A stretch of 59,690 bases of DNA, counting the filler, from Jimgerdemannia flammicorona (taxonomy: Eukaryota), in the NCBI GenBank assembly GCA_003990765.1. It is 2 parts of 2 records of this genome, joined end to end, with 100 filler letters (N's around TTAATTAATTAA, not from the genome) between each part and the next. Parts side by side here need not be neighbours in the genome. Positions count along the whole stretch, not along the records: positions 1 to 29,800 come from RBNJ01000470.1; 1 more part is not named here. One strand, given 5' to 3'. Within the stretch, counting starts at the first letter, position 1, and every line of letters starts with the position of its first letter. The notes below the pieces were generated by a model. It ran no database searches. It was not told where the DNA came from and was given only the letters and a program-made list of their open reading frames with translations. Positions 9,469 to 42,927 of this stretch are shown here, piece after piece. The translations under genes and the position numbers were made by a program.

Positions 9469-11001
9469 CAGCAAGCTGACAGTTAGAGTGAATATATATA
9501 ATTATATTAGAAAGAAGTACAATCTGAGCATTCTTTCTCCAGTAATATTCAGATTACACAATCTTCTGGCAATACTTATAACTTTGTTTTTAGAGAAAAG
9601 ATACTAATAATATAATAACTGATAATATAAGAGAATTACTTATAAAAGTACCATTACATAGTTCTGAAGGGGTTTTCTGGAAGTTTTAGATATTCTGGAA
9701 GACTATTTTCTTTAGGTCAAGATCAATTTTATATGGAGTACATCCTCTACACTTATTGATTTCAAGATTATATTGATATTTCAACCAAAGTTCTTTTTTG
9801 AACTAGTTCTAGATGTTTAGGATTTTCTATATTTCAGGAAGTTTAAGAAACTAAAACTAGCTTAGTTGAATTGGTGTATCACTGCAGATAATACCTAATT
9901 AGGAAATTTCATAATATAGTTAGAAGTAGGACCTAACAGAGTGCAGATTTACTTAAGAGTAGTTTGTAGGTTATTAAATAGATTTATTTACTATTCATAA
10001 TATTGCTATACTAGAAGTGGTGTATGAAGGGATATTATGGAGAAGTGTTCAGGAGTTCTTATATTTGGATCTGTTCAAGTCTAAGTTTCTGAGGTTTGAA
10101 GAGAGAGTATTTATACTAATAGGAGACTATATGGACTAGGCTAAATATGGATATAGTACTTAGTATCTTACTGAGTCAGAATATAGTTACATAGTACAAG
10201 TGTGAACTGACATATCAAGAGATTGTCTGACTGTTGAGTCAGTATGCAGTTATATTATATAAGGCTAATCTAACTATACTAATAACTGCTAAGCTATCTA
10301 TAGATTTAGATGCTGTTTGAGTAATCTTTAATGATATCACTATTAATGATATTATCTCTGATAAAGTAGTTATCTAGAAAGAGTGATTCTTGGATTACTT
10401 CTCTCTATTTACTTAGATAATAATATATTGGGACCATATTACTATTCCACAGAATAGTATCATCTGTCTCATATGCTAAATATAGAGTTAGTAGATAAAG
10501 AAGGGATATATTATCATTGCTTTCATCAGATTCACTATCTGTATACCTTTTATAGATTGTAGTACTATATGTTGCTGGATTATAGTAAGCTGGGACTGTT
10601 CTTCATATTACTTATACTCAGATAGTAGAGTTGTTGGTTTGATCTTAAGGGTTCTCTGGAGGTACAGATTATATTCTCTAGTCTCTTTATTATAGTTGAA
10701 GTAGTTGAGTATGAATGTAGGTTAGTACTTGTACCAGTGATTGTTATCTCAATAGGTCTTGTATATGAACTATTGTAAGTTCATCAGTAAGATTGGTAGA
10801 GTGATCAGGGCTGGCAGAGATTCTTGGCTAGTGATTATATTAGTGTCAGAGATATTGTTATCTTCTACTTTATCATTATCAAACTAGATGATATTATAGA
10901 TATTCTTCATAGCATATCCAACTTGGGATATTTGTAGAATATGGTCATCAGAGTATAGAAAGGTTCTATCTGTAGTTTGAACATACTTGATATATTTATA
11001 G

Positions 11002-12570
11002 TATTATATAGTGGTCGCTGAGTCCTTCAAATATGTCAGATTCTCTTCAAGGTATATCTCTTAGACTAACTCAAGTTTGTTATAAGTAAGTTCTTATTGG
11101 AGTGCCTTTCCAAGATCTTATAGTCCTCAAACTTCTTATCTTTAAACTGTCTTATTATTTCTTTAGATTGCTTGCAAGGAATTATATATATTGTACTGAG
11201 TAGACTGACTTTATTTCAGAGGAAATAAGAGGAGTATTTATACAAAATATAATTCAATAGTTGCTAAGATATAAAGCTAAATATAAATTCCAATAACTAA
11301 AATAAAATGCCAGAATAGGGAAAAACTGCTAAGTTTCAGTGTTGGTACAGATGGTTGCACAGGGTCAGGATACTGGTATAATTTGGTAATATAGAAAAAT
11401 AGTACTGGAATAATTCAGTGTCATATCAGAATATCAGTAGTGGAACAGCTGTTACACAGGAAAAGAGTGCTGGCATAATTTGGTATAACCAAGAGACTTA
11501 GAGCAGAATATTCAAGACCATAGAAGCTTCATCCTTGTCAGAGGTCAGGATGTCTTTAAAGGAGATAAGATCTGTGAATGTCTCATCTATCTCATGGCAT
11601 AGATCATACATTTCGCATATATCATATGGGATGACATCATCACCAATGACATCATCACATTCAGTGGTAGTGGGAACAAGGAGGTCTGGAGCTCTCCAGT
11701 CTATGAGGTTTTCTTCTATGAAATAGGAGACAAATGTAGAGTCTTGAGGAGATCTAATCTAGATACTTGGGCCTTAGAATACTGAGATCAATCTTTATAG
11801 AAATTGGTCTGAGTTGTCCTGGAGGATAGGATGTCAGAAGTCTTCTATTTAATCACTATTGAGGGTGATAGTAGACTGGGCTTCTGTAGCCACTCTGGCT
11901 TCTAGTGCATTGATATGGTGGGCTGATAGGTCTCTGAAGTCTGAGACTCTAACATACTTCAAGTTGGGGATTGATCATAGTATATGCCTGAAGATCTGAT
12001 GAATCTTCTTAGCTATTCTTGCTTCACATATATCTATAGAAGTGGCATCTTGTAACTCTTGGAGACTGGCCTGTGGGAACTCTCAGCAGAGAAGGTTTTC
12101 TATCTTATACTTCTGCCACATTTAGAGGTATTCAGTAGCAATAGTGATTCTTGTTTCTATTTTATGACAGTAGAGAATATAATGATAAGGGTCACCAGTA
12201 CCCAGGTTGATACTAAGAGTCCTTCTTAAGCAGGTCCTCATGGCTCTTCTGATGTCTTGAAATATTCTTTCTTCAACTGAGGTACCTTGGTGATTCCTTG
12301 ACCTTGAGATTTGGTGAGCAGCAGGCATTTCATTTGTGATAAGTCTTTGAGCTATTTTGAGATTGATGGGCCTTATTGGTTGCTACTACTATAGTTCCTT
12401 GATCCTTCTTTTATATTTCTCAAGATACCTGTACTGTGGTCACAATAACTCACAGTTGGTCATTATTGCTCATCTTGTATGCTGTATGATCTTCTTGTGC
12501 TCTGATCTGGTGGCTTACAAGGAAAGGCTGTCTTCTGTGCTGATGTCATCATTCTGGGGTTACTGTTACA
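11002..12570 (-). repeat. 3' LTR of family A copy 1, containing a decayed LTR-ORF (11498-12328)
   Basis: Starts TGTAAC right after PPT AGGAGGAAGA on the minus strand; direct repeat of 18254-19821. Confidence 0.9.
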
Positions 12571-15500
12571 TCTTCCTCCTGAATAAGGATCTTCTTGAAT
12601 ATCCTTATTCATTAGTCCAGTCTTGAAAAATTTACTGATTCTATAATCTCTGGCAAGGGGTCAAAAAGTGGTATTTATAGGCTGGTGTCTTCTCTTTGTA
12701 TTTTGGTATGATGGTGAAGAGTTGCTCTCTTCATATAGAGCAAGAGCCTGATTCTGATCTTGATTAATCAGTTGATAGTTCAAACTCCTCTGGCTTTGAA
12801 AGTCTCATGAATGAGTAGTTGCTGATGCCATATCCCTTAGAGAATGGTCCAGACAGATAGTCTGCTAGTCATGGGATATGCTGTTATGATTTGTGGGCTA
12901 GAACCTCACAGGTAGTCATCATGTTTTACTTCTCTTATATAGGTTCATGGTACCTCTTGAGTCTATTTCTGTATACTGTGGTAGGCAGTATGGTCTCTGA
13001 GATTTTTCTAAGCCAGAAGGTAGTTCCCTTGATATCTTGCATATAGAAGGGTCCTTCTCATTTGGGCTCCAGTTTTCATAACCATGAGGCTTTTACCATA
13101 TTTTGATACAGTAGGACCTTTTTTCCAATTTGGATGGGTTCCAAGGTCTTGTAATTCTTTTCTGTATTCTTTCTTATCAGTGCTTATGACTTAATGATGT
13201 AATCTTCAGCCTTCTTTCTGATTTGGTGTAGTCTCTGGATTTCTGCATCAACTATCTCCAAGTTAGGTCTAGATTTGTAGCTAAGATTCCATCAGAATCT
13301 TCTTCTCCAAAGGGCAGTTCTTTTGGGGTAAAGTGTGTGCTCTGTGACCATATATCTCATAGGACAGAGAGGGTAGTTGGGAGGTAGTTATTCCAATTTT
13401 TATATGTCTCTGAGATCTTCACCAGGATATTCTTAAGGGTCTTGTTGGTCCTCTCTGTCTGTCTATTTCCTTAAGAGTAATATGCAGTGGTCTTGATGTG
13501 CTGAATCTTATATTTCTGATACATTATCTTATGGAATCTATTGATAAATTCTGTGCCATGGTCTGTGGTGATTTGCTTTAGTATCTTATAGTGGCAGATG
13601 ATTTCTCAGTGCAAGAAGTTAGCTATAGAGAGGGTATTGGCTTCTTATAATGCTCCTGCTTCTATCTATTTAGTAAAGAGGTCTATAATAACTATAATGT
13701 AGTAGTTTCCTGATAGTGTTACTGGTAGTGACCCAATGATATCTATTGTGATGTGGTGGAAGAGGATAGGTTCAATTCTTGATGATCCAGATACCTGGTC
13801 TTGCTGATCTTATTTCTGTTTTTGGTACTTATCATACTCTTTGATAAATTGGCACAGGTCTTCTATCATCTTGGGCCACCACATGGTTCTTCTTGCCTTG
13901 TCATATATATTGGTTCCTCCTAGGTGTCCTTGTTCATGTACTTCCTTCATTACTTGATACTTCTTGTATTTGGATATTATGAGCTTTCCTCCTTTTCTGA
14001 GTATAGTGTTGTCTAGTTCAAACAATTTCCAAGTCTGGTTGATGATGGTAATTGTCCAGAGTTCGAGGTGGTTGGGCATCTTCTACTGCCCAAGGTAGCT
14101 GATCAATCCATAGTATAACTTCTTATTTATATTGAATAGTCTTGATGGGAGTATTTTGGGGTATCCTTGAGAGTATATTAGCATTGGTATTGGTTTTTTC
14201 TGAGTAGTGCTTAATAGTATAGTTATACTCTTGCAGCCTATAGATCTATCTGGTATATATTTCTTTAGGGTTCAGAGTGTGGAATAGCCAGGCAAGAGCA
14301 GAATAGTCTGTTTGAATGGTAAAGTGTTTTCCAACTAGGTAGTAGTAGAACTTGTCTACTGTCCAAACTACTGCTAAGTATTTGAGCTTATATGACTTGT
14401 AGTTCTGTTCTGCTCCATAGGTATCTCAGCTTGTATAAGAGATAACATATTCATGTCCATCTTTCTTCTAAGCTAGGACTGCTCCAAGTTCTATAGTGCT
14501 TGCATCTGTCTGCAGGATGAACTCTAGGTTTCGATCTGATCTTCTGAGGATAGGTGCTTGAGTCAACCTGGTCTTGAGTTTATTGAAGGTTTTTTGGCAT
14601 TTCTTGGTCCATTTGAATTTGGTCTCCTTCTTCAGTAGCTCATAGATAGGTGCTATAATATTGGAGTATTCTTTGATGAATCTTCTGTAGTAGCTGGCCA
14701 GTCCAAGGAAGACATAGACTTCTGTGGTTGTTCTGAGTCTTGGGTAGGCTACAACAGCCTCAATCTTCATGGGGTCTGTATGGATTCTGGTCTGGTTGAT
14801 GAGGTGTCCTAGGTAGGTGATTTCTTGAGCTACAAACTTGCATTTCTTGGGCTTGATGTAGAGGCCATGCTCCTTGAGCTTCTTGAGAGCTAGCTGTATA
14901 TGATTCCTGTACAGTATTGCTGAAGATGATCACATTGTCAACATAGACAAAGAGCCATTTTCTGATCTCATTGCTGAAGACTCTATTCATCATTTACTAA
15001 AAACTTGCTGGGGCATTACACATTTTAAATAATATTCACAGGTAGATATAGGTGGCATTAGGTATAATGAAGGCTGATTTCTCACTGGTATCTTAAGTGA
15101 GATCAATCTGATGGAAGCCTGAGAACAGATCCAAGGTGGTATAGTATTTGGCTTCACTTCTAAGAGTGGTAAGAATTTCTTGAATATTTGGCAAGGGCTG
15201 CCTATCCTTCTTGGTAATTGTATTGAGCTTCCTGTAGTCAATACAGAGTCTTGGAGCAAACTCTCCAGGCTTACTTCCTTTCTTTAGGGCAAGGACAATG
15301 GGTGAAGCCCAGGGACTGATAGCTTGCTTGATGATTTCAGCTTCTTCCATTTCCTTGAGTTCTGCTTGCAGCCATTCTCTGTAGGCAGGTGGTATAGGTC
15401 TGGCTTTCTGATAGATGGGCTTGATATCACCAGTGTCAACTTTATAGTAGTACTTGGATTCTTGATTATAGATATCCCTGAAGTCTATAGCAAGTACTCT

Positions 15501-18253
15501 TTTATTCTAATGCAGGATCTTAAGAAGTTGTTCTTCCAGGGGAAAGTTTTCTCTAATGATATATGTATGCTTGTTCTGGTCCCTGTCTTTCTTATGCTTA
15601 AGTTCAGTAATCTTGGTAGTAATATAGACTCCTCTTCCAGTTGATCCAAAGCCTTGTTTTCCTCTCTTGGTCTTGATGAGTTCAATGGCTTCTATTATTT
15701 TGGGCTTCTTGATTTCGTGGATTAGTATCTGGCCAATCCTGTTACATATACTTCTTGACTTTGAATAGAGTGGTGGGGTTGTAATTCCTGACTATGAGAA
15801 AAATCTTACCAGTGTAATCAGGGTCAATTACTCCTCCTTCAACTGAGATTTTGCTTTTGGCCAGACTGCTCCTGGTTTTGATAATTCCAGCATAGTTCTC
15901 TGGCAGCTTGACTCCAATTCCAGTACCAAGTAGGGTGGTGGTCTGTGGTTCAAGGGTAGTATCTTGAATGCTGGCAAGGTCTATTTCTATGGCTCCTTCA
16001 GTCTTGTATTCTGGGATCTTAGCTTTAGGGTGAAACTTCTTAACCTTGAGGGTGATGTCTGATTCTTGTTTCTCCTCATCATTACTGTCAGCTTGAAGCT
16101 CTGGAGGCTGGTCATCTTCTTCAGCTTTCCTTTTTGCTTCAGCAGCTTCTTGTTCATACTTCTGTTGGCAGATTTTTCTGACTTCACTGATATAGGACCA
16201 GCAGTCATTCAGGTGTTCAGAGTAGTACATCCTAGTACCATGGGCATCTTTCTTGAGGAGCATAGCCATTGATGATCTTATTGTACCACTGCTTGTCTAT
16301 GAGCTTGGGTGTCTTGTTCTTTTCTTGTTCACTGAGTGCATGAAGACTTCTGTATCCTCCTCATTTCCTTTCTCTATATCTGATAGAACTCTTTTGTAGA
16401 CATTGATAGAGACTTATATCTTTCTTCCTCTATAGTTGATCTGCATCTTCTGGGCATTGAGATCAATGATGACCTTGGCCTTGTGAAGCCATTAATTGCT
16501 AATGAGAATGTCATAGTTAGTGGTGCTTATAACAATTACATCTACTGAGATAGTAGCTTCTCCTATCTTGATGGGGACTTCTTGGATTTTGCTAAGGAGA
16601 GTAGCTCATATACTATCTGCTGTGACATTGATCATCTTGGTGGACTCTTCAATGTCCCAGTCTAAGTGGTCAATTGTCTTCTTGCTCATGAGGCATCCTT
16701 CAGCACCAGTATCAATGATGGCATCAAAGATATAATCTTTGATCTGATATGGGGTATAGGCTGATATCTTATACTGGTCTTCAGATTCTTCACCTGAGTT
16801 TTCAGATTCTTCCTGTACATTGTGAGCTTCTACAATCTTGTACTCTTGATTCTTAGCAGTAGTTGCAAGTTCTACTCTTAACTGCTGTCTGAAGGCAGAG
16901 ACTTTGGCTAGCTGTCTAAAAGTAGCATTGACCTTCTGTTCCTTGAGGTCCTTGTAGATATCATACTAGTAGATCTTGGTCTTGTGCAGCTTCTGTTTCT
17001 TCTTGCTTTCACTTTCTCCTGAGACTAGAGTAGTGCCTTCAATGATTTGGCAGGTAGCTTCATCTAACTCCATATCTTGATCAATCTCCTCAGGTTGGAT
17101 CTTGCTTTAGATAATAACAGCTGGAGTCTTCTTTGGTCTTCCAACTGGTTTGCTATTGCTCTTCTTGTCATAGAGCTTGGACTGAGTTCTGGTACCTTCA
17201 GTAGAGGGTAGAATTTGAGCTCCTCATAGTATTCTTTATCATCAGTATTACCAATCTTCTCGATGACTACTGTATTGGTTTGTTTTCTGGTTCTGCTAGC
17301 ATTACTTGATTGGGCTTTGTGTCTTGTTTCAGTTATGCAATTCTTTGCATAGTGGCCTTCTTTATATCTGAAGCATGTGATATTGCATTCTTCTGTAGCA
17401 GCTACAAATCTCTGCACTGGTCTCCTGTTGGTACTTTGGACTTCTCTAATAATATTACCAAAGTGTACAGTCATCTCAGTGAACTGCTTGGCAAGTTTCT
17501 CCACTGGGTCAGCTTTGGCTGCCTTGGGAGTAGATGGGGATGGTTGTCTGTTTACAACTGTAGCAGATATGATACTAGTTGGCTTTAATGACTCCATCTT
17601 AATACCAGTTATTTTCTCTATTGAGTGTTTGGCAGAGTATCTGGCAGTCCAATATCTCTGTATAAAGACCACTTTCTGATCAAGGATTAGTACAGCTGGA
17701 GTAGACCAGATTGCTAGAGCAATTTCAGGGTGAACTTCTTTGAGGAAGGTTAATTCTGCTATTTATTTCTTGAGAGCATCATCATAGCTAGCCAAGATAA
17801 TCTGGTGATAGATTCAGGTATAGAATGAGTTGGGATCTTCACTAAGTCTCTGGCAGATAGTATTGAGTTGATCCTTGAGAGCTTGCTTAATCTCTTTAGT
17901 ATAGTATGTTATTCTGAGAAAGGCCTTCATATTGGCAAGTTTGGCTGCACTATTATCAGCAATAGTAGCTGTATTGAACTTATCTCTGACAGGTCCTCTG
18001 TGACTGGTAGAAGGGCCAATTGTGTATCCATACCAAGAGCTCATACAGTAGCGAATTGTTCAAAGTCTTCAATAAAGGTCAGAATTGACTCTTTAGTAGT
18101 ATATCTATAGAATGTGGGGGGATGTATTTCCATCTTATCTTGAATTCTTATAGGGGTGACTCTTGTAGTCAGGGTAGTTATTGTGGTGGTTGTTTGTTTT
18201 TCAGCTTAAAAGTGAGAGATTCATCTTGAATTACCAGCCAATGAGCACTAAGT

Positions 18254-19821
18254 TATCATATAGTAGTCGCTGAGTCCTTCAAATATATCAGATTCTCTTC
18301 AAGATATATCTCTTAGACTAACTCAAGTTTGTTATAAGCAAGTTCTTATTGGAGTGCCTTCTTAAGATCTTATAGTCTTCAAACTTCTTATCTTTAAATT
18401 GTCTTGTTATCTCTTTAGATTGCTTATAAGGAATTGTGTATATTGTACTGAGTAGACTGACTTTATTTTAGAGGAAATAAGAGAGGTATTTATATAAAAT
18501 ATAATTCAATGGTTGCTAAGATATAAAGCTAAATATAAATTCCAATAACTAAAATAAAATACCAGGACAGAGAAAACTGCTAAGTTCCAGTATCAGTACA
18601 GATAGTTGCATAGAGTCAAGATGCTGGTATAATTCAGTGATATAGGAAAATAGTGCTGGAATAATTCAGTATCACATCAGAATACTGGTAGTGAAACAGC
18701 TGTTATACAGAAAAAGAGTGCTGATATAATTCAGTATAACCAAGAGACTTAGAGTAGAATATTCAAAACCATAGGGGCTTCATCCTCGTCAGAGGTCAGG
18801 ATGTCTTTGAAGGAGATGAGATCCACAAATATCTTGTCTATCTTGTGGCATAGATTGTATGTTTCACATATGTTGTGCAGGATAACATCATTGCTGATAA
18901 TATCATCACATTTGGCAGTGGCAGGAACAAGGAGATCTGGAGCTCTCCAGTCTATGAGGTTCTCTTCCATGAAATAGGGGACAAATGTAGGGTTTTGAGG
19001 AGGTCTAACCTGGATACTTGGGCCTTGGAATACTGAGATCAATCCTTGCAAGAATTGGTCTGGGTTGTCCTAGAGAATGGGATACCAGAAGTCTTCTATT
19101 TTATCACTATTAAGGGTGATAGTGGACTGGGCTTCTATAGCCACCCTGGCTTCTAGTGTATTGATACAGTGGTCTGATAGGTCTCTGAAGTCTGAGACTC
19201 TAACATACTCTAAGTTGGGGATTGACTATGATGCATGCTTGAAGATCTGATGAATCTTCTTAGCTATCCTTACTTCATGTATATCTATGAGAGTGGTATC
19301 TTGTAACTCTTGGAAACTGGCCTGTGGGAACTCCTGGCAGAGGAGGTTTCCTATCTCATACTCCTGCCATATTTGGAGGCATTCAGTAGCAATGGTGATT
19401 CTTATTTCTATTTCACAGTGGTAGAGGATATAATGATAAAGGTCACTAGTATCCAGGTTAACACTAGGAGTCCTTCTTAAGTGGGTCCTTATGGCTCTTC
19501 TGATGTCTTGGAACATCCTTTCTTCAACTAAAGTGCCTTAGTGGTTTCTTGACCTTGAGGTTTGGTGAGCAGCAGACATTTCATTTGTGATAAGTCTTTG
19601 AGCTATTTTGGGATTGGTGGGTCTTGTTGGTTGCTGCTACTGCAGTTCCTTGATTCTTCTTTTATATTTCTCAAGATATCTATACTGTGGTCATAATAAC
19701 TTACAGTTGGTCATTATTGCTCATCTTGTATACTATATGATCTTCTTGTACTCTGATCTGGTGGCTTATAAGGAAATACTGTCTTCTGTGCTGATATCAT
19801 CATTCTGGGGTCACCATTATA
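18254..19821 (-). repeat. 5' LTR of family A copy 1, containing a decayed LTR-ORF (18749-19579)
   Basis: Followed on the minus strand by ACT + T(A/G)GTGCTCATTGGC PBS; ORF pieces 19226-19516 and 18749-19051. Confidence 0.9.
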
Positions 19822-20415
19822 GTAGTTAAGTTTTTATACCATATTGTCAATTTAGCTATAGGACAGAGTAGTAACCATTTCAGCAGTAGTAACTCAGAGA
19901 TAGGAAATAAAGGTGCTATACTCATAAAAGAGGTTTCAGTATTTGTGAGTGATAAGCTTCTAGTATTAAGATATCTGGATAATATCTATATCATAGTAGT
20001 GTTCAATCATATCTTCTAGGAGGTGACTAATCTAATAGTAGCTTGAGATTTGTACAATTTGGTGAGCTTTGCTGAGCATGTTCTGAGTATTCTATTAGGC
20101 TTCTATAAAGTAAAGAGATACTAGACTATGAATGTTCATGAGGGGCAGAGAAGGGGTAACTCAGTTGATTATAGTTCTCCATTTCAATATATCTGAGTAC
20201 TCAGTATATATATATTTGGTCTTGATTGGTAAGTTCGGTTTGTGTAAATATTGTATTCTGTGACTTTGAGTTGACTCAGCTTTGTGTTCTATAACTTCAG
20301 TTTGACTCAGCTTCATAATCTTATATGTGATTTCTGGATTTATTCTGAGGGTGATATGTGATTTCAGTGACTTAGAGGTTGTATGCTTATAGATGAATAT
20401 TCTGAAATATGTACT

Positions 20416-24926: not shown

Positions 24927-25232
24927 CTCACTCCCCTGATACACCACTTTCCCCAGTGTCTCCCTCACCAGCGTCCCCGTCCTCCCAACAATATTCATCC
25001 CCCTGATACGCTACCTTCTACCTTCCTCACCAGCGTTCCTGTCCTTCTGAACAACACTCACTCCCCTGATACGCCGCCTTCCTTGGTGTCCCCTTCACCA
25101 GCGTCCCCGTTCTCCCAACAACACTTATCCCTCCGATACGCCACCTTCCTTGGTGTCTCACTTCCCTGTGTCCCATCCTCCCAACAACACTCACCCCCTC
25201 GATACGCCGCCTTCCTCACCAACGTCCCTGCC
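24927..25232. repeat. Degenerate C-rich minisatellite, ~5 units of 63-67 bp
   Basis: Anchor GATAC recurs at 24938, 25005, 25068, 25135 and 25201, with shared caccagcgtcc and cccaacaacact segments. Confidence 0.8.
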
Positions 25233-26997: not shown

Positions 26998-28344
26998 ATG
27001 TCCGACCCAACCCGTCTACAGCGCCTACTAGCCCGACTCAAGCCCTTCGAACACCTGCACAGTGCCCACCAAACTGAAATCTTGGCCTGGAAGAAAGATT
27101 TTTTGGAATATGACCAAGAACTTCGTGCTTGTCTTGACACCTTCGCCGTACCGCAGCTGGAGCCATACCTTGTCTGGATTCCACACGAAAAATTGGGTAA
27201 ATATTATGGTGGACTGAAACAACTTGCCAAAGGCGGGTTTGCCAAAGTTTACCAAGCGAATGTTTGGGCAAAGTCAGCATATTACAATGTGGCTGCTAAA
27301 GAATTGAAATTGTCGATGGTTGAAGAGGTGAGTTTCGGGTTGGTGTGATATATCCACTATTTTCCACACAATATTAATTACCGATAACCTTTATCCACTA
27401 ATAATTATAGTTAGTGCTGAATGTCTATTTGAGTCGCTGTGGAAATGACGCCAACAATGCCCCTACAATGGATATTGTCGCTGTGTCACGACACCCTGAA
27501 ACCAAAGAATATTTGATGATTATGCAATTTGCTGATATCGGCACTCTTGAGAAGCAGCCGTGCGACCAAGATGGTGATTGGTATACAGCTTTCACCTATG
27601 CTATAAAACTTTCCAGCCGCTTAGCCAGTCTCCACAATATGGGATTCTGCCATAAGGATCTCCACGCGGGAAACGTAGTATTCCACAAGTCTCATACCGC
27701 ACTCCTGATCGATGTCGGACTTAGTCAAGCTGTAGAAGATGTGAATTCCGAGAAAGGTGCCTACGGTCGGATTGCATACTTTCCTCCAGAGATCTTTAAG
27801 GGAGAACATTATACACAGAAATCAGACGTCTACTGCTTGGGAACCCTGTTGTGGCAGTTGATTGTCGGCGTTCCACCACAAGTCGACGCATCGGTAGCCA
27901 TCACCAGAAATCCTGATGGCCTTCGAGAGGAGTTAATCCCTAGTGCGCCAACAATGTTCAACGACATCATCCGAAGCTGCTGGCACATCAACCCCAACCA
28001 GCGACCGAGTGCTCTTGAAGTCCACCATCAATTGTTAGAATGTGCAGCTGGTTTAGTCAGCATTCCTTTTGTCTTGCGACCAAATATAGAAGATCAAATT
28101 TTAAGAGGGCTTGCAATTACATCTATACCTTTTTCACTCGAGATGCAATCGTTCATCGAGACAAGACGGGTCACCCATCAACAAGAGCTGGAATCTGCAA
28201 ACAGCGGCAACGTCTTCGAATTCATAGATGGACAGAGCACATGCAACACCGGGAGTAAATTTTACACACATTCACAACTCAAACAAATTACCAAAGAGCA
28301 CTCGCGATCGACCCTTATCACTCTTGTGCGACAACCAAATCAAG
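26998..28344 (+). CDS. Tyrosine-kinase-like (TKL) Ser/Thr protein kinase domain; exons 26998-27327 and 27411-28344; probably the N-terminal part of a kinase-LRR protein
   Basis: LAKGGFAKVY, VAAKEL, HKDLHAGN, LIDVGLS, YFPPE, SDVYCLG, CW...RPS motifs. Phase-0 GTGAGT...ACTAAT...TAG intron 27328-27410 joins the two ORFs in frame. Candidate donor G|GTTGGT at 28344/28345 (phase 1). Confidence 0.9.
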
Positions 28345-28645
28345 GTTGGTAGCATCACAGGTCATACAGTTATCCTTGTATATGATATTATATTTGTTAA
28401 CCAGCAGGCTTTTGTGTTCTTAACTTATGTCACAACGATTAGACTATGGTAGCATCAGAGGTAATGTTAGCAGGTCCCGAGATTGTTGACATTTGGTTTA
28501 TGCATATTAATTCTCGATTTGTGTTTAGAGAAGAGCATCCCGACGAATCACAACACATATATTATATCACATGAACTATTTTCTACTGTTCATATAATCA
28601 AAATCATGTTCTGTTTATGTTCGCTATATCTCTATTCATCTACAG

Positions 28646-29800
28646 AAAGCAGGACTGACAGCGAGGAGACCAGTATCCTAGTGAAGTTTCTGAAGCGAGA
28701 AGCGACCTTGCATGAGTTAAATCTCTCTGGTATGGTTGAACAGTGCGAACTATTGTTATGCAAAAATAAAAATACACACTCTGCTCATTTATATCATATT
28801 CAGGAAAGTGCAAGTACACGAGCGACAGAGCAACGCGCACTCTGATAGAATTTCTGAAGCAGAACACAAACGTGACCAAGCTCGATCTTAGCAGTGAGTC
28901 AGAAACATCCGAATTATTGTTTTTGTAGCTGTGGGATAGGAACAAGTTGTGATCCAGGTGTGTTCACATTCTTTCAATATATTCAGGAAACGGATTTGGC
29001 ATTCTGTTAGCCCGCGCCTTGGCAGAGTTTCTGAAGCAGAACACATCTTTGACCACCCTCAATTTTGAAGGTATATCAGAGTTACGTGAATCACTATTTT
29101 GAGCAATATGAGGGAACGGAGCTCACAATATCCGTGTGTTTTCTCATCTCCTTCTATTCATTTCTCAGTGAACAGCATCGGCCACGAGGGGGCACGCGAC
29201 CTTGACCTCGCTGCATCTCCGAGGTATGTCAGAAACCGGTGTGAAGAAAAATGGGGTGCGGCTGCGCAATGGAATCAAGCTCACGATGTGTGCGTGTTCG
29301 CTGATTCCCCTCCTGCTCATTTTCATTTCTCAGAGAACAGCATCGGCGACGAGGGGGCACGCGCCCTAGCCGAGTGTTTGAAGCAGAACACGACCTTGAC
29401 CTCGCTGGATCTCGGAGGTATGTCAGAAACTGGTGTGAAGCAAAATGGGGTGCGGCTGCGCAATGGAATCAAGCTCACGATGTGTGCGTGTTCGCTGATT
29501 CCCCTCCTGCTCATTTTCATTTCTCAGACAACGGCATCGGCCACGAGGGGGCACGCGCCCTAGCCGAGTGTTTGAAGCAGAACACGACCTTGACCTCGCT
29601 GGATCTCCGAGGTATGTCAGAAACTGGTGTGAAGCAAAATGGGGTGCGGCTGCGCAATGGAATCAAGCTCACGATGTGTGCGTGTTCGCTGATTCCCCTC
29701 CTGCTCATTTTCAGTTTCTCAGCGAACAGCATCGGCCACGAGGGGGCACGCGCCCTAGCCGAGTGTTTGAAGCAGAACACGACCTTGACCTCGCTGCATC
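28646..29800 (+). CDS. RNI-like (NLRC3-type, 28-aa) leucine-rich-repeat exons: 28646-28729, 28804-28893, 28987-29070, 29169-29223 (29-bp deletion), 29334-29417, 29528-29611, 29723-gap
   Basis: Each exon is flanked by CAG and GTATGT/GTATGG/GTGAGT/GTATAT. Intact exons are 84 nt (one 90 nt) and phase 1-1, translating to xN(S/G)IG(D/H)EGARALAECLKQNTTLTSL(D/H)L(G/R). Confidence 0.88.
29169..29800 (+). repeat. Tandem 194-bp exon+intron cassette (84-nt exon + 110-nt intron)
   Basis: Near-identical units start at 29169, 29334, 29528 and 29723; the array is truncated by the N gap. Confidence 0.92.
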
Positions 29801-29900
29801 NNNNNNNNNNNNNNNNNNNNNNNNNNNNNNNNNNNNNNNNNNNNTTAATTAATTAANNNNNNNNNNNNNNNNNNNNNNNNNNNNNNNNNNNNNNNNNNNN
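29801..29900. other. Assembly gap with artificial TTAATTAATTAA spacer (29845-29856)
   Basis: Ns flanking a palindromic 12-mer that gives stops in all six frames. Confidence 0.9.
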
Positions 29901-33625: not shown

Positions 33626-33826
33626 ATAATTTATATAATAAAATTTCTAATAGAATTTCTAGAGTAGTTATTATAATAGTGACTCTAGAATGATGACATC
33701 AGTACAGGAGACAGCCTTTCCTTGCAAGCCACCAGATCGGAGCACAAGAAGATCATATGGCATACAAGATGAGGAATGATGACCAACTGTGAGTCATTGT
33801 GACCACAGCACAAGTATCCTGAAGAA

Positions 33827-33833
33827 TATAAAA
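33827..33833 (+). promoter_or_regulatory. TATA box (TATAAAA) upstream of the LTR-internal ORF
   Basis: Present in all six family A LTRs, ~80 nt before an ATG in an A-rich context (AAACAAAATG). Confidence 0.55.
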
Positions 33834-33913
33834 GAAGGATCAAGAAACTGCAGTAGTAGCAACCAATAAGAACTACCAATCCCAAAATAGCTTAAAGACT
33901 TACTATAAACAAA

Positions 33914-34725
33914 ATGTCTGCTGCATGCCAAACCTCAAGGTCAAGAAATTACCAAGTATCTTGGTCGAGGAAAGGATGTTCCAAGACATCAGAAGAGCCA
34001 TGAGGACCCACTCAAGAAGGACTCCTAGTGTCAACCTGGGTACTGCAGACCCTTATCACTTCATTCTCTACTGCCATGAAATGGAAACAAGGATCACTAT
34101 TGCTACTGAATGCCTCCAAATGTGGCAGGAGTATGAAATAGGAAACCTTCTCTACTGGGAGTTCCCACAGGCCAGTACCCAAGAGCTACAAGATACCACT
34201 CCCATGGATATACACAAAACAAAGATAGCTAAGAAGATCCATCAGATCTTCAGGCATGTACCATGGTCAATCCCCAACTTGAAGTATGTTAGAGTCTCAG
34301 ACTTCAGAGACCTATCATCCTGCCATATCAATATACTAGAAGCCAAGGTGGCTATAGAAGCCTGGTCCACTATCACTCTCAACAGTGAAGAAGTAGAAGA
34401 CTTCTGGCACCCTATCCTTCAGGACATCCCAGACCAATTCCTGCAAGGATTGATCTCAGTATTCCGAGGCCCAAGCATCTGGGTTAGATCTCCCCAAGAC
34501 CCCATGTTTGTTCCTTATTTTGTGGAAGAGAACCTCATAGACTGGAGAGCTCCAGACCTTGTTTCCGATTTCCCCACCACAGCTAAACATGATGACATCA
34601 TTGGCGATGATGTCATCCTGTATGACATACGCGAAATGCATGACCTGTATGATGAATTCATGGATCTCATCTCCTTTAGTAATGATGATGATGAAGCCCC
34701 CATGGTCCTGAACTTTCTGCTCTAA
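33914..34725 (+). pseudogene. LTR-internal ORF of copy 2 5' LTR (1-bp deletion near 33956, otherwise open)
   Basis: Homologous over its whole length to the intact 278-aa ORF 56620-57456. Confidence 0.8.
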
Positions 34726-35136
34726 GTGCTTTGTTACACTGGATAATGCCAGCACCAGTATTCTCATGTAACACTAGATAATGCCAGCATCCTGAACCTG
34801 TACAACTATCAGTACCAACTCTGGAACTTAGTTGTTTTAGTTATTGGAATTTATATTTAGCTTTATATCTTAGCAACCATTGAATTATATTTTATATAAA
34901 TACCCCTCTTATTTCCTCTGAAATAAAGTTAGTCAACTCAGTGCAATATACACACTTTCTTGCAAATAATCTAAGAGATAACAAGACAGTTTAAAGATAA
35001 GAAGTTTGAGGACTATAAGACCTTGAGAAGGCACTCCAATAAGAACTTGCTTATAACGACTTGAGTTAGTCTAAGAGATATACCTTGAAGAGAATCTGGC
35101 ATATTTGAAGGACTCAGTGACCACTATGTGACAACT

Positions 35137-35153
35137 TGGTGCTCATTGGCTGG
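35137..35153 (+). promoter_or_regulatory. tRNA primer-binding site (TGGTGCTCATTGGCTGG), 3 nt after the LTR
   Basis: Starts TGG (complement of tRNA CCA); conserved at 53500 and ~18234-18250. tRNA species not assigned. Confidence 0.75.
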
Positions 35154-35253
35154 TGATTCAAGATGAATCCCTTACTTTTAAGCTGAAAAATGAATAACCC
35201 CCACAACAACTACTCTGACTACAAGAGTCACTCCTGCAAGAATTCAAGATAAG

Positions 35254-38200
35254 ATGGAAATGTATCCCCTTACATTCTATAGATATACTACTGAAGAGTC
35301 AATCCTGACCTTCATTGAAGACTTTGAACAATTTACTGCCATATGAGCCCTTGGTGTGGATGCTCAATTGGCCCTTCTACTAGTCAGCCTCAGTGGACCT
35401 GCCAGAGACAAGTTTAATGCAGCCACTATTGCTAGTGCTGATGCAGTCAAACTTACCAACATGAAGACCTTCCTCAGAACAACATATTATACTAAAGAGA
35501 TCAAGCAAGCTCTCAAGGATCAACTTAATACTATCTGCTAGGGACTTAGTGAAGATCCCAACTCATTCTATATCTGAATCTGCCACCAGATTGTCTTGGC
35601 TGGCTATGATGATGCCCTTAAGGAACAAATAGCAGATTCAACCTTCCTTAAAGGAGTTCACCTTGAAATTGCCTTAACAATCCAGTCTACCCCAGCTGCA
35701 CTGACCCTTGATCAGAAAGTGGTCTTTGCACAGAGATATTGGACTGCCAGACACCCTGCTGAACACTCAATAGAGAAAATAACTGGCATCAAGATGGAGC
35801 CATCAAAGCCAACTAGTATCTTACCTGCCACAGTTGTAAACAGACAACCAACCCCACCTATCCCCAAGACAGCCAAAGCTGATCCAGTGGAAGAACTCGC
35901 CAAGCAGTTTGCCGAGATGACTGCACACCTTGGTGATGTTATTAGAGAGGTCCGAAGCACTAACAGGAGACCAGTGCAGAGATTTGCAGCTACTACAGAA
36001 GAACACAATATCACATGCTTTAGATGCGGAGAAGAAGGCCACTATGCAAAGAGTTGCATGACTGAAATGAGATGCAAAGCCCAACCAAGCAATGCTAGCA
36101 GAACCAGAGAACAAACCAATGCAGTAGTTATTGAGGAGATTGGTGACACTGATGATGAAGAATACTACGAGGAGCTCGAATTCTACCCTGCTACTGAAGG
36201 TACCAGAACCCAGTCCAAGCCCTATGACAAGAAGAGCAACAGCAAGCCAGTTGGAAGACCAAAGAAGACTCCAGCTGTCACTATTCAAAGCAAGACCCAA
36301 CCCAAGGAGATTGATCAAGACATGGAGTTAGATGAAGCTACCTGCCAAATTATCGAAGGCACTACTCTAGTCTTAGAAGAAAGTGAGAGCAAGAAGGAAC
36401 AGAAGCTGTGCAAGACCAAGATCCACCAGTATGACATCTACAAGGACCTCAAGGAACAGAAGGTCAATGCCACTTTTGGACAGCTAGCTGAAGTCCCTGC
36501 CTTTAGATAGCAGTTGAGAGTAGGACTTGCAACTACTGCCAAGAATCAAGAGTACAAGATCATAGAAGCTCACAATGTACAAGAAGAATCTGAGAACTCA
36601 GGTGAAGAATCCGAAGACCAGCACAAGACATCAGCCTATACCCCCTGCCAGATTGAAGACTGTATCTTTGATGCCATCATTGATACTAGTGCTGGAGGAT
36701 ACCTCATGAGCAAGAAGGCAATTGAATGCCTAGGTTGGGACATTGAAGAGTCCACCAAGATGGTCTATATCACAGCAGATGGTACACAAGCTATCCCCCT
36801 TGGCAAAATCCGAGAAGTCCCCATCAAGATAGGAGGAGCTACCATCCCAGTAGACATGATTGTTACAAGCACCACCAACTATGACATCCTCATTGGCAAC
36901 CAATGGCTTCACAAGGCCAAGGCCATCATTGACCTCAATGCCCAGAAGATGCAGATCAACTACAGAGGAAGAAAGGTATGAGTTTCTATCAATGTCCACA
37001 AAGGAGTCCTGCCAGACATGGAGGAAAAAGATAAAGAAGACACAGAGGTCTTTATGCACTCAGTGAACAAGAATAAGAACAAGACATTCAAGCTCACAGA
37101 TGAGCAGTGGTATAACAAGATCATTGATGGGTATGCCCCTCAAGGAAGATGCCCCCATGGTACTAGAATGTACTGCTCTGAACACCTGAATGACTGCTGG
37201 TCCTGTATCAGTGAAGTCAGGAAAATCCACCAACAGAAACACAAGCAAGAAGCTGCTGAAGTAAAAAAGAAAGCTGAAGAAGATGACCACCCCCCAGAGC
37301 TTCAAGCTGACAGTGATGATGAGGAGGAACAAGAATCAGACATCACTCTCAAGGTTAAGAAGTTTCACCCTGAAGCCAAGATCCCAGAATACAAGACTGA
37401 AGGAGCCATAGGAATAGACCTTGCCAGCATCTAAGATGCTACCCTCAAACCACAGACCACCACCCTACTTGGCACTGGAATTGGAGTCAAGTTGCCAGAA
37501 AACCATGCTGGAATTATCAAGACCAGGAGCAGTCTGGCCAAAAGTGAAATCTCAGTTGAAGGAGGAGTAATTGACCCTAATTACACTGGTGAGATTTTTC
37601 TCATAGTCAGAAATCACAACCACACCACCCCCTTCAAAGTCAAGAAACATGACAGGATTGGCCAGATGCTAATTCATGAAATCAAAAAGTCCAAGATCAT
37701 AGAAGCCACTAAACTTATCAAGACCAAGAGAGGAGAATAAGGCTTTGGATCTACTGGAAGAGGAGCCTATGCCACCATCAAGATTACTAAACTTGAGCAT
37801 AGGAAAGACAAGGACCAGAACAAGTACACATATACCATTGGAGAAAACTTTCCCCTGGAGGAACAACTTCTCAAGATCCTGTACCAGAATGAAGGAGTAC
37901 TTGCTACAGACTTTAGGGATATCCACAATCAAGAACCCAAGTATTACCACGAAGTTGACACTGATGATACCAAGTCTATCTATCAGAAAGCCAGACCCAT
38001 ACCACCTGCCTACAGAGAGTGGCTGTGAGCCAAACTCAAGGAAATGGAAGAAGCCAGAATCATGAAGCAAGCTATCAGCCCCTGGGCCTCACCCATTGTC
38101 CTTGCCCTGAAGAAAGGAAGCAAGCCTGGAGAGTTTGTACCAAGACTCTGCATTGACTATAGAAAACTCAATGCCATCACCAAGAAGGATAGGCAGCTCT

Positions 38201-39279
38201 TGCCAAATATTCAAGAAATCCTTACCACCCTTGGAAGCAAAGCCAAATACTACACCACCTTGGATCTGTTCTCAGGCTTCCATCAGATCAGTCTCACTTA
38301 AGATGCTAGTGAGAAATCAACCTTCATCACACCTGATGCCACCTATATCTATCTGCGAATGCCATTTGGAATGTGCAATGCCCTAGCAAGTTTCCAGCAA
38401 ATAATGAACAGAGTCTTCAGCAATGAGATTGGAAAATGGCTCTTTGTCTATATTGATGATATGATCATCTTCAGCAATACTGCACGGGAACATATCAATC
38501 ACATACAGCTAGCCCTCAAGAGGCTCAAGGAGTATGACCTCTACATCAAGCCCAAGAAATACAAGTTTGTAGCTCAAGAAATCACCTACCTAGGACACCT
38601 TATCAACCAGACCAGAATCCATACAGACCCCATGAAGATCGAGGCTGTTGCAGCCTACCCAAGACCCAGAACAACCACAGAAGTCCATGCCTTCCTTGGA
38701 CTGGTCAGCTACTACAGAAGATTCATCAAAGGATACTCCAACATTGCAGCACCTATCTACGAACTACTGAAGAAGGAGACTAAATTCAAATAGACCAAGG
38801 AGTACCAAGAAATCTTCAATGAACTCAAGACTAGGTTGACCCAAGCATTCATCCTCAGAAGACCAGACTGGAACCTAGAATTCATCCTGCAGACAGACGC
38901 GAGTGCTATAGGACTTAGAGCAGTCCTAGCTCAGAAGAAAGATAAACATGAATATATCATCTCCTATGCAAGCTGAGATACCCGCAGAGCAGAACAGAAC
39001 TACGAGTCATACAAGCTTGAATACTTAGCAGTAGTTTGGACAGTAGACAAGTTCCACTACTACTTAGCCAGAAAACACTTCACTATTCAAATGGACCATT
39101 CCACTCTTGCCTGGCTATTCCACACTCTGAACCCCAAAGGAATATATGCCAGATGGATCTACAGGCTGCAAGAGTATGACTGTACTGTCAAGCACCACTC
39201 AGGAAAGACCAATACCAATGCCAATGCACTCTCAAGAACACCCTGAAACACTCCCATCAAGACTACTCAATATGAATAA
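35254..39279 (+). pseudogene. Single-frame gag-protease-dUTPase-RT-RNase H polyprotein with premature stops
   Basis: ORF pieces 35356, 35596, 36514, 37018, 37492, 38044 and 38359 are all in one frame. CFRCGEEGHYAKSC knuckle, AIIDT(S/G)A protease, dUTPase motifs, WASPIV/LCIDYRKLN/LDLFSGFHQ/MPFG/YIDD, LQTDAS, NANALSR. Confidence 0.92.
37345..37758 (+). pseudogene. dut: Trimeric dUTPase domain within pol, between protease and RT
   Basis: GAIGIDL, TRSSLA, GGVIDP(N/D)YTGEI, DRIGQM, RGE*GFGSTG (motifs 1-5). Also present in copies 1 and 3. Confidence 0.92.
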
Positions 39280-40798
39280 GGAGCTATACTATGGATTAAT
39301 CAGCTATCTTGGATAGTAGAAGATGCCCAACTACCTCAAACCCTGGATAATCACCATCATCAACTGGACTTAGAAATAGTTTGAATTAGACAACACTACA
39401 CTCAGAAAAGGAGGAAAGTTAGTAATATCTAAACATAAGAAGTATCAAGTAATGAAGGAAGTACATGAGCAAGAACACTTAGAAGGAACCAACACATATG
39501 ACAAGGTAAGAAGAACCATATGGTGGCCCAAGATGGAAGAAGACCTGTACCAATTTGTCAAAAAGTGTGACAAGTGCCAAAAACAGAAACAAGATCAGTA
39601 AGACCAGACACCCAGGTCATCAAGAATTGAGTCTATCCTCTTCCACCACATCATAATGGATATCATTAGACCACTACCAGTAACACTATCAGGAAACTGC
39701 TATATTATAGTTATTGTAGACCTCTTCACTAAATGGATAGAGGCAGGAGCATTACAAGAAGTCAATGCCCTCTCTATAGCTGACTTCCTATACTGAGAAA
39801 TCATCTGCTGCTATAAGACACCAAAGCAAATCACAACAGACCGTGGTACAGAATTTGTCAATAGATTCTATGAGATAACGTATCAGAAATACAAGATCCA
39901 GCACATCAAGACCACTGTGTACCACCCTCAAGGAAATGGACAGACAGAGAGAACCAACAAGACCCTCAAGAACATCCTAGCAAAGATCTCAGAGACATAT
40001 GAGAATTGGGATAACTATCTCCTGACTGCCCTCTCTGTTCTACGAGATATACAGTCACAGAGTACACATTTTACCCCAAGAGAGCTGCTCTTTGGAGAAG
40101 AAGATTCTGATGGAACCTCAGCCACAAATCTAGACCTAACTTAGAAATGGATTGATGCAGAAATCCAGAGACCACACCAAATCAGGAAGAAGGCTGAAGA
40201 TTACATCACCAAGTCACAAGCGCTGACAAGGAAGAATGCGGAAAAGAATCACAAGGTCCTAGAATCCATCTGAATCAGAGAAAAGGTTCTACTGTATTGA
40301 AATATGTTAGAAGCCTCATGGTCATGAAAACTGGAGCCCAAATGGGAAGGACCCTTCTATGTGCAAGATATCAAGGGAACTACCTTCTGGCTTAGAAAAA
40401 TCTCAGGGACCATACTGCCTACCACAGTACATAGGAACAGACTTAAGAAGTACCATGAACCTATACAAGAGAAGCAAAATGTGATGACCGCCTGTGAGAT
40501 TCTAGTCCGTGAATCATAACAGCATGTCCTGTGACCAGCAGGCTATCTGTCTGGACCATTCTCTAAGGGATACAACACTGCTAACTACTCATCTGTGAGA
40601 CTTTCACAGTCAGAGAAGTTCAAACCATCAACTGATTGATCAAGATCAGAATCAGGCCCTTGCTCTATATGAAGGGAGCAACCCTTCACTATTATGCCAA
40701 AATACAAAGGGAAGATGCCAGCCCATAAACACCAGTTTTTGACCCCTTGCCAGAGGTTATGGGATCAGCAAATTTTTCAGGACTGGACCAATGAATAA
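39272..40798 (+). pseudogene. Integrase in a separate (+1) reading frame, with premature stops; no chromodomain
   Basis: Starts MNKELYY. HHCC zinc finger, DII(G/R)PLP, ITTDRGTEF, YHPQGNGQTER, KWEGPF. Ends ...WTNE* just before the PPT. Confidence 0.88.
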
Positions 40799-40822
40799 GG
40801 ATACTCAGGAAGATTCTTATTC

Positions 40823-40832
40823 AGGAGGAAGA
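40823..40832 (+). promoter_or_regulatory. Polypurine tract AGGAGGAAGA
   Basis: Directly precedes TGTAAC of the 3' LTR; identical in copies 1 and 4 and in family B. Confidence 0.88.
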
Positions 40833-42294
40833 TGTAACAGTGACTCCAGAATAATGACATTAGTACAGGAGACAGCCTTTTCTTACAAGCCACCAGATTG
40901 GAGCACAAGAAGATCATACAGCATATGAGATGAGCAATGATGACCAACTGTGAGTCATTGTGACCACAGCACAAGCATCCTGAAGAATATAAAAGAATGA
41001 TCAAGGAACTGTAGTAGCAGCAACCAACAAGAACCACCAATCCCAAAATAGCTCAAAGACTTACCATAAACAAAATGCCTGCTGTATGCTAAACCTCAAG
41101 GTCAAGAAATCACCAAGGTATCTCAGTTGAGGAAAGGATGTTCCAAGACATCAGAAGAGCCATGAGGACCTACTCAAGAAGGACTCCTAGTGTCAACCTG
41201 GGTACTGCGGATCCTTATCACTTCATTCTCTACTGCCATGAAATGGAAACAAGGATCACTATTGCTACTGAATGCCTCCAAATGTGGCAGAAGTACGAAA
41301 TAGGAAACCTCCTCTGCCAGGAGTTCTCACAGACCAGTACCCAAGAGCTACAAGATGCCACTCCCATGGATATATATGAAATAAGGACAGCTAAGAAGAT
41401 CTATCAGATCTTTAGGCATGCATCATGGTCGATTCCCAACTTGGAGTATGTTAGAGTCTCAGACTTCAGAGACCTATCATCCCACCATATCAATGCACTA
41501 GAAGCCAGGGTGGCTACAGAAGCCCAGTCCACTATCACCCTCAACAGTGAAGAAGTAGAAGACTTCTGGCACTCTATCTTTCAGGACAATCCAGACCAAT
41601 TCCTGCAAGGATTGATCTCAGTATTCCAAGGTCCAAGCATCTGGGTTAGATCTCTCCAAGACCCCACATTTGTTCCTTATTTTGTAGAAGAGAACCTCAT
41701 AGACTGGAGAGCTCTAGACCTTGTTCCCAATTTCCCCACCACAGCTAAATGTGATGATGTCATCAGTGATGACATCATCCCACATGACATATGCAAAATG
41801 CATGACCTATATGATGAATTTGCAGATCTCATCTCCTTCAGTGATGAGATGATGAAGCCCTCATGGTCCTGAACTTTCTGCTCTAAGTTTTTTATTACAC
41901 TGGATAATGTCAGCACCAGTATTCTCATATAATACTGGATAATGCCAGCATTCTGAACCTGTACAACCATCAGTACTAACTCTGGAACTTAGTAGTTTTA
42001 GTTATTGGAATTTATATTTAGCTTTATATCTTAGCAACCATTGAATTATATTTTGTATAAATATTCCTCTTATTTCCTCTGAAATAAAGTCAGTCAATTC
42101 AGTACAATATACACACTTTCTTGCAAGCAATCTAAGAGATAACAAGACAGTTTAAAGATAAGAAGTTTGAGGACTATAAGACCTTGGGAAGGCACTCCAA
42201 TAAGAACTTGCTTATAATGACTTGAGTTAGTCTAAGAGATATACCTTGAAGAGAATCTGGTGTATTTGAAGAACTCAGTGATCACTATGTAATA
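40833..42294 (+). repeat. 3' LTR of family A copy 2, with LTR-ORF remnant (41075-41886)
   Basis: Direct repeat of 33672-35133, same length. Confidence 0.92.
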
Positions 42295-42927
42295 TTATAT
42301 ATATCTTCAATAAGATAAGTATAAATATTCTTAAATATTATATAGTATAATATAGCAGATATCTAATCTTAGAAGTATGGTGGATTTCTATATATTGAAA
42401 CTTGATCTTATTCTAACTCTTACAGAGTTCTCAAGGTGTAAAGATATAAGTTCAAAGTATATCTGGCTATAGGCTTACTAGTTCTCTTACTTTTTCTTTA
42501 CTTTGAACTATTTTGATCTGAGGTTTATTCACTCTAGATACTGGAGATATTTATATAAGTTCACTAGCTATAAGGTGGCTGAGGTATGACTATATTTCCT
42601 ATAAGTTACTTTTTATAAGTATGGATTCTTAATATCTGTGAAATTTTAAAAATTATCAAAATTCAATATCTATTAAATCTTGATATTTATAAAAATAACT
42701 ACTATTTATATAGCTATACTATTTTGGAGATTGGTTTAAGTACTATAATCAAATATCTATTCCTCTAATTTATATTTCTAATTCAGATCAATTATGTATT
42801 ATAACTTTCTCCTAAATAAATATTTTATCTCTAAAGTATCTTATTCACTTGAACTCCCAAACTTCTATAAGTTATATCTCTTTATACTATATATATAATT
42901 TGTATTATTATATTCTCTTAATAGTAT

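Follow-up and report, generated by a model that had tools for sequence, protein, structure and literature searches.

A kinase gene of Jimgerdemannia flammicorona with near-identical exon-intron cassettes encoding leucine-rich repeats

Introduction

What does a tandem array record when the introns of its units are nearly identical and the few differences between its exons lie close together in the encoded repeat? Such an array was found in the fungus Jimgerdemannia flammicorona, in a stretch of 59,690 nucleotides (the window) that joins two parts of the genome assembly. At 29169-29800 short exons, each encoding one leucine-rich repeat (LRR), are repeated together with the introns between them, and the array forms the assembled 3' end of a plus-strand gene that starts at an ATG at 26998 and encodes a kinase. 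An earlier note on this DNA had proposed homogenisation of the units combined with selection for new specificity. It is well supported that whole cassettes, exon and intron together, have recently and locally been duplicated or homogenised, and diversifying selection on the units is plausible but unproven. The explanation that we favour overall, with modest confidence, is a kinase-LRR gene with a young cassette array whose sensor surface is diversifying.

Structure of the array

The cassettes reported by the earlier note are real. Tandem Repeats Finder returned a period of 194 with 3.1 copies and 96% matches at 29197-29800, and the exact anatomy of exons and introns agrees with it. The unit of 194 bp consists of an 84-nt phase-1 exon and an intron of 110 or 111 nt, and the array comprises four exon copies (c1-c4) and three GT..AG introns, all on the plus strand. 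Each 84-nt exon encodes one 28-residue repeat of the type found in ribonuclease inhibitor (RNI) and in NOD-like receptors (NLRs), classified by Pfam as LRR_6. The two exons that are complete are c2 (29334-29417; translated (E)NSIGDEGARALAECLKQNTTLTSLDLG), with an LRR_6 score of 27.3 bits (E=3e-6) against a cut-off of 23.4, and c3 (29528-29611; (D)NGIGHEGARALAECLKQNTTLTSLDLR), which at 22.2 bits (E=1.3e-4) falls just below the curated cut-off. The last, c4 (29723-29800), is represented by its first 78 nt only and is truncated by the contig end and a run of N. The first, c1 (29169-29223), has 55 nt, since in the alignment of the units it lacks 29 nt beyond column 30, and it is thereby frameshifted. 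The missing segment is flanked by short direct repeats (CACG...CACG), which suggests slippage or a microhomology deletion, or else an assembly error.

Introns 1 (29224-29333) and 2 (29418-29527) are both of 110 nt and differ by two substitutions. The earlier description of three 110-nt introns holds for these two, and intron 3 (29612-29722) has 111 nt, with an additional G at 29714. An intrinsic function of the conserved intron core was considered and rejected, there being no Rfam match to intron 2 and nothing unusual in its predicted fold (z=-0.56). No further copies of the cassette occur elsewhere in the window. The contig end is followed by an artificial spacer without strand at 29801-29900 (44 N, TTAATTAATTAA and a further 44 N), which carries stop codons in every one of the six frames. 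It follows that the array sits at a contig end, and the sequence at 29901-59690 need not adjoin the LRR gene.

Differences between units

Across the 331 nt of the introns there are two substitutions, at columns 14 and 24 as counted along the first intron, and one indel, in keeping with the few base changes first described. The exons differ at columns 1, 2, 6, 15, 75 and 81, which requires at least seven events in 301 nt, and every one of these events is non-synonymous. As near-identity extends to the non-coding intron, it points to recent duplication or homogenisation of DNA and not to constraint at the level of the protein. The changes comprise GTG/GAG/GAC/GCG (V/E/D/A) in the codon at the splice junction, S/G, R/G and, twice, H/D. 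When the repeat is numbered as L1-x-x-L4-x-L6-x-x-N9-x-I11-G12 they fall in five codons, at positions 5 (D/H), 7 (G/R), 8 (V/E/D/A), 10 (S/G) and 13 (D/H), and thus around the LxLxxN strand, where they had been placed before. That the most variable codon is split by the intron was also borne out: the codon for position 8 takes its first base from the end of one exon and the other two from the start of the following exon, the intron between them being in phase 1. Positions 14-28 and 1-4 are invariant across c2, c3 and c4, and the segment EGARALAECLKQNTTLTSL is the same in all three, as expected from the reported invariance of the helix-coding core in the intact units. Pairwise protein identity among these three units is 92-96%, and some 80 intact residues were assembled before the contig ends.

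Within the window it is the positional clustering of the differences alone that exceeds chance. All six variable columns (p=0.020) and all five variable codons (p=0.031) lie within LRR positions 1-15. When the comparison is narrowed to the eight consensus-free positions of the repeat (2, 3, 5, 7, 8, 10, 13 and 14), all variable sites fall among them, with p=3.3e-4 for columns and p=5.7e-4 for codons, this set of positions having been picked after the data had been seen.

The location of these positions in the fold was approached through the closest named relative of the gene, a hypothetical protein of 769 aa from Endogone sp. FLAS-F59071 (P0001). This protein was modelled without an alignment, and the model was of poor quality in the kinase and of moderate quality in the LRRs (predicted local distance difference test, pLDDT, 60-77). 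The LRR part alternates between strand and helix with a period of 28, strands occupying repeat positions 3-9 and helices positions 13-25, and in a Foldseek search of solved structures it matched NLRP14, NLRP3, NOD2 and ribonuclease inhibitor (E 1e-9 to 1e-7). Positions 5, 7 and 8 are placed by this model in the beta-strand, position 10 in the loop that follows and position 13 at the start of the helix. In the RNI-like LRR fold the exposed residues of strand and loop line the concave ligand-binding face, and the differences between the units of the window are thus likely to fall on the binding face. The earlier claim that the variable sites face a binding surface is to this extent upheld for their placement in strand and loop of a homologue, the concave face itself being general knowledge about the fold.

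The same positions vary in other arrays of this type. Three proteins encoded on large ENA contigs (P0022-P0024), which combine a NACHT domain with LRR_6 repeats, contain 12-16 near-identical 28-residue LRRs each, and their units are 65-68% identical to the unit of the window. Entropy over 40 of these units was highest at position 8 (3.19 bits), followed by positions 7 (2.03), 5 (1.77), 10 (1.26) and 9 (1.19), and did not exceed 0.99 elsewhere. The most variable positions of these proteins coincide with the variable positions of the window.

The gene carrying the array

Exon 1 (26998-27327, 330 nt, phase 0) runs from the ATG through an N-terminal region to the start of the kinase, with its glycine loop KGGFAKV and the lysine of VAAKELK. 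It is followed by a GT..AG intron of 83 nt (27328-27410), and a joint that skips these 83 nt was found in a contig of the public run X2. Exon 2 (27411-28344) contains the catalytic core (HKDLHAGN, DVG and FPPE) and a linker and ends in phase 1. Both reading frames are open. The exon 2 product matched the Pfam kinase families PF07714 (E=1.4e-25) and PF00069 (E=2.7e-21), with FAK, ABL and MAP3K12 as its best solved relatives. Since the full set of motifs is present the kinase, which resembles the tyrosine kinase and tyrosine kinase-like (TK/TKL) groups, looks catalytically competent. The Pfam match ends at residue 208 of a 313-residue frame, leaving about 100 residues of exon 2 without a match. 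No NACHT, NB-ARC, Roc or COR domain was detected by Pfam in exons 1-2, the gap of 301 nt at 28345-28645 not having been scanned for a missed exon. There is no hydrophobic segment indicative of a membrane span, the maximum Kyte-Doolittle mean over 19 residues being 1.35, a result obtained without a dedicated predictor of signal peptides or transmembrane segments.

Three further LRR exons separate the kinase from the cassettes. Exon 3 (28646-28729, 84 nt) and exon 4 (28804-28893, 90 nt) are both diverged; exon 3 is bounded by splice motifs and is linked to 28804 by a GT..AG joint in X2 that skips 74 nt, and exon 4 is joined to about 28988 in contigs of X1 and X2. Exon 5 (28987-29070, 84 nt), likewise diverged and bounded by splice motifs, has 61.5% protein identity to c2 by tblastn. 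All LRR exons are of phase 1-1. The Endogone protein is 58% identical over 99% of the kinase exon and has the same order of domains, a kinase followed by LRR_6 repeats. No relative with more than 66% identity was recovered by protein searches with the kinase exon in the databases searched. This one named match, the short GT..AG introns and the pieces recovered from root metatranscriptome and soil metagenome runs point to a source that is probably among the Endogonales-related Mucoromycota.

The gene is embedded among degenerate long terminal repeat (LTR) retroelements. About 1.8 kb upstream of it, at 25027-25216, there is a tandem repeat of 66 nt with 2.8 copies and 80% matches.

Related sequences in public data

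Three public runs supplied contigs that align with 26998-29417 at no less than 90% identity. One of them, X3, is registered as a root metatranscriptome, and the other two, X1 and X2, are presumed, as a guess, to be RNA. The runs cover only parts of the gene, and neither the uncovered parts nor the word shares of the runs (0.00-0.19) were used as evidence. GT..AG joints were seen for intron 1 and between LRR exons 3, 4 and 5. Depth in the intron bins was a few per cent of that in the flanking exon bins, which fits an origin of the contigs from RNA. A piece of the kinase exon of 289 nt was found in the root metatranscriptome with two differences. Summed depth reached about 3e5 on 29348-29417 as against 1e2-2e3 on the kinase bins; this is not a copy number and hints at a very abundant motif.

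In 32 contigs (19 from X1, 12 from X2 and one from X3) the alignment, on nearing the end of the cassette exon, resumed directly at its start. A period of 84 nt, taken as aligned length plus the letters between, was found in all 12 cases listed out of 140 in total. These exon-to-exon joins represent a spliced, or intron-less, tandem form of the cassettes. Codons 7 and 8 were replaced in these contigs, giving nine different pairs (WD, YN, SW, GW, GV, GE, GG, FH and ES), and the flanks of the contigs were at least 90% identical to the window. One contig each from X1 and X2 carried a joint from 28893 to 29335, which links LRR exon 4 at its 3' end directly to the beginning of a cassette exon and leaves out exon 5 and c1. 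This may be either a paralogue with another order of units or frame-neutral skipping of exons.

Cassettes at other loci were less alike. Two database proteins result from reading through homologous cassettes located elsewhere, one of them (P0030) covering intron-exon-intron and the other (P0034) intron-exon-intron-exon; homology of their introns is recognisable, and both substitutions and indels are present. P0030 was the only homologous cassette among nine protein matches to a 40-residue read-through query around c2. An exhaustive search with a 36-residue translation of the intron gave three matches, P0034 and two unrelated repeats (P0032 and P0033), which were set aside. Three contigs of soil DNA had 4-5 differences from the window in 64 nt, and one soil-DNA contig was an exact copy of 29349-29406. 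As the introns of the two read-through proteins and the soil-DNA contigs have diverged, introns are much more alike inside the array (two differences or fewer in 110) than between loci or genomes. Searches of public metagenome contigs gave no matches to a degenerate pattern for GARALAECLKQNTTLT and none to a 23-nt pattern for the intron core.

Origin of the array

The mechanism that we propose starts from a gene product in which a cytoplasmic TK/TKL-like kinase would be followed by a C-terminal RNI/NLR-type LRR domain. The last units of that domain arose from recent tandem duplication of the entire exon-plus-intron unit, or were homogenised locally by unequal crossing-over or conversion, for which the near-identical introns supply the homology needed for mispairing. 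Because the exon has 84 nt and phase 1-1, the mRNA becomes 28 codons longer or shorter whenever a unit is gained, lost or skipped, and the frame is kept. The array would then act as a sensor surface under diversification, and binding of a ligand to the LRRs might regulate the N-terminal kinase. Candidate ligands could, speculatively, include non-self molecules of plant hosts, endobacteria, viruses or conspecific hyphae. The data fit ongoing concerted evolution and a single recent burst of tandem duplication alike, and the two are not distinguishable.

A number of points must be set against a diversifying sensor. The array offers only three intact or near-intact units and stops at the contig end. 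The excess of differences in exons is not significant, whether taken as variable columns (6/84 in the exon and 2/110 in the intron; Fisher p=0.079, or 0.18 when the indel is counted) or as substitution events (7/9 in the exon; binomial p=0.069), and nor is the finding that 7/7 exon events are non-synonymous (p=0.14). The earlier proposal of homogenisation with selection for new specificity is supported in its first part, by duplication or homogenisation of whole units, and by the clustering of variable codons, whereas the exon excess does not lend it significant support. Variants in the public contigs may come from paralogues or related species; the listing of joints is selective, and alignments break exactly where mismatches are dense. 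Variant letters inside 29334-29417 lie outside the rows listed, which makes the per-site diversity of the exon unreadable. P0034 differs also at positions 22, 27 and 2, so that variation across loci extends beyond the binding face. Finally, the gene may have become a pseudogene if c1 is retained and its deletion is genuine and no assembly error; skipping of c1 would keep the frame, because all cassettes are of phase 1-1.

The foremost competitor is a very recent neutral tandem duplication, in which the copies are young, the differences are unselected mutations or imports by conversion from paralogous cassettes, and their positions reflect purifying selection on the helix core. The lack of significance of both the exon excess and the all-non-synonymous pattern is in its favour, as are the two-state differences (H/D twice, R/G and S/G), which would be expected if they had been copied from existing variants. 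The array of the Endogone protein, moreover, shows that internal conservation is not obligatory in the kinase-LRR family. It accounts less well for the fact that all five variable codons lie in that half of the repeat which forms strand and loop (p=0.03), for their agreement with the most variable positions of the comparator arrays and of the related transcripts and for the complete lack of synonymous changes. What also argues against it is that C alternates with G at three of the six exon columns that vary, all three being first positions of codons. We regard neutral duplication as unlikely, though it deserves serious attention.

The array might also be an artefact of assembly, a collapsed or mis-threaded repeat in which mixed reads from many cassette loci would make the copy number, the 29-nt deletion and the differences between units unreliable. 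The earlier note had named consensus errors in a collapsed repeat as a refutation, and the position of the array at a contig end leaves this some weight. The contig does end inside the fourth unit, at the artificial spacer, c1 is frameshifted, and the cassette core is found in many contigs of other runs (1108 in X1 and 750 in X2) and at the high summed depth given above; sequence of this kind is hard to assemble. Against this, distinct variants are threaded through three successive units, the runs of invariant sequence that separate variable sites measure about 59 and 86 nt, below common read lengths, and the soil-DNA contig is identical over 29349-29406. Wrong phasing would, in any case, still leave real cassette variants at those positions, and an artefact is considered improbable. 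Least probable of all is a decaying pseudogene among retrotransposons that has lost its frame and differs between units through relaxed constraint, for which the frameshift in c1 and the setting among degenerate LTR retroelements may be cited, since the kinase motifs are intact and exons 1-2 open, c2, c3 and c4 lack stops and frameshifts, a near-identical piece of the kinase exon was found in a root metatranscriptome, and decay should have affected introns and synonymous sites at least as often as non-synonymous ones, which is not what was observed.

The reading of a young cassette array on a kinase, with a diversifying sensor surface, can be extended tentatively to a wider one, which is possible rather than probable. 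Endogonales-like fungi might possess a large, expressed family of kinase-LRR genes, perhaps with other LRR genes besides, whose sensors would be assembled from exon-intron cassettes that are interchangeable and hypervariable in their beta-strand codons. Such a family would provide an LRR-based intracellular recognition repertoire that lacks the nucleotide-binding oligomerisation domain (NOD) and is varied by crossing-over between introns and possibly by skipping of cassettes.

Other repeats in the window

The retroelement is about 8.9 kb long, with copies at 10992-19824 (minus strand), 33669-42304 (plus strand) and 53316-59688 that are 84-90% alike. Direct repeats of about 1.56 kb, 87% identical, lie at 11002-12563 and 18254-19814. 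Pfam matches included an aspartyl protease, RVT_1, RNase H, an integrase and a dUTPase domain (15742-16296), in frames that are broken. An open frame of 260-305 residues recurs in the LTR regions (33832-34725, 41093-41872, 56620-57537 on the minus strand and 51817-52218), and the two copies tested matched no Pfam family. There is also a repeat of 5.5 kb with one copy per contig (2908-8408 and 42925-48396; 71% identity), C-rich on the plus strand (GC skew -0.3 to -0.5) and with long open frames rich in proline and serine. One of its frames (8011-8679) was tested and had no Pfam match.

Comparison with known systems

The closest parallel in fungi is provided by repeats of high internal conservation (HIC), namely the WD40, ANK and TPR repeats of fungal NLRs, including the HET-E/HET-D/nwd family of Podospora (Dyrka et al. 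2014, PMC4986451), for which the defining threshold is more than 85% identity among the repeats across a total of 100 residues or more. Both systems have near-identical tandem repeats that build a superstructure at the C-terminal end of a signalling protein, with variation on a few surface positions per repeat. Reshuffling of repeats by unequal crossing-over or conversion has been proposed for both, and positive selection, proposed for the HIC repeats, is unproven here. The window differs in its type of repeat, the LRR, in its kinase partner, no NACHT or NB-ARC having been found, and in having one repeat per exon with the intron duplicated along with it. Surveys of fungal immune-type receptors name WD40, ANK and TPR repeats and describe LRRs as absent from fungal NLRs (PMC4986451, PMC12881547).

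With animal NLRs (NLRC3-like, NOD2 and NLRP3) and ribonuclease inhibitor the gene shares the 28-residue RNI-type repeat LxxLxLxxNxIGxxGA, but its effector is a kinase and no NACHT domain was found. It would thus not be classed as an NLR or other signal transduction ATPase with numerous domains (STAND), as there is apparently no central NACHT or NB-ARC between effector and repeats. In zebrafish NLR-B30.2 genes each LRR is likewise encoded by a single exon and the LRRs are extensively duplicated in some groups; the authors of that study describe them as 'not particularly variable' (PMC4852459). An LRR and a kinase on one polypeptide are also found in plant LRR receptor kinases and in the LRRK/ROCO kinases. 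In plants and oomycetes the receptor kinases carry a plant-type LRR outside the cell, a membrane-spanning helix and a kinase at the C-terminus, whereas the gene in the window has an N-terminal kinase, an RNI-type LRR and no hydrophobic segment; with its domain order reversed it would not appear to be a plant-type LRR receptor kinase. From the LRRK/ROCO kinases it differs in that no Roc or COR domain was found by Pfam in exons 1-2. A survey from 2010 in which LRR_6 was not scanned lists, as the fungal proteins with both LRR and kinase, four genes of chytrids and five of ascomycetes, the latter intronless and thought to be bacterial in origin (PMC2939053). For Endogonales, Endogonaceae, Jimgerdemannia, Mucoromycota, Rhizophagus, Gigaspora and Glomeromycotina, the open-access literature searched yielded no description of LRR-kinases or of internally conserved LRR arrays.

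The Endogone protein has the same N-terminal region, TK/TKL-like kinase, linker and LRR_6 repeats, and among the three units listed its LRRs look as if they had diverged well from each other. The NACHT-LRR_6 proteins P0022-P0024 have the near-identical 28-residue RNI-type arrays, with variability peaking at positions 8, 7, 5, 10 and 9, but carry NACHT and no kinase. Internally conserved LRR cassettes on a kinase in a root- and soil-associated fungus would extend the principle of the hypervariable repeat sensor to a new type of repeat and a new effector in fungi. If true, the wider reading of a large kinase-LRR family would amount to a NOD-less LRR repertoire in a kingdom that has been described as without LRR immune receptors. 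Such arrays break short-read assemblies and would consequently be under-counted. The locus would also be a tractable case, in which symmetric exon-intron cassettes could let a binding surface both grow and vary.

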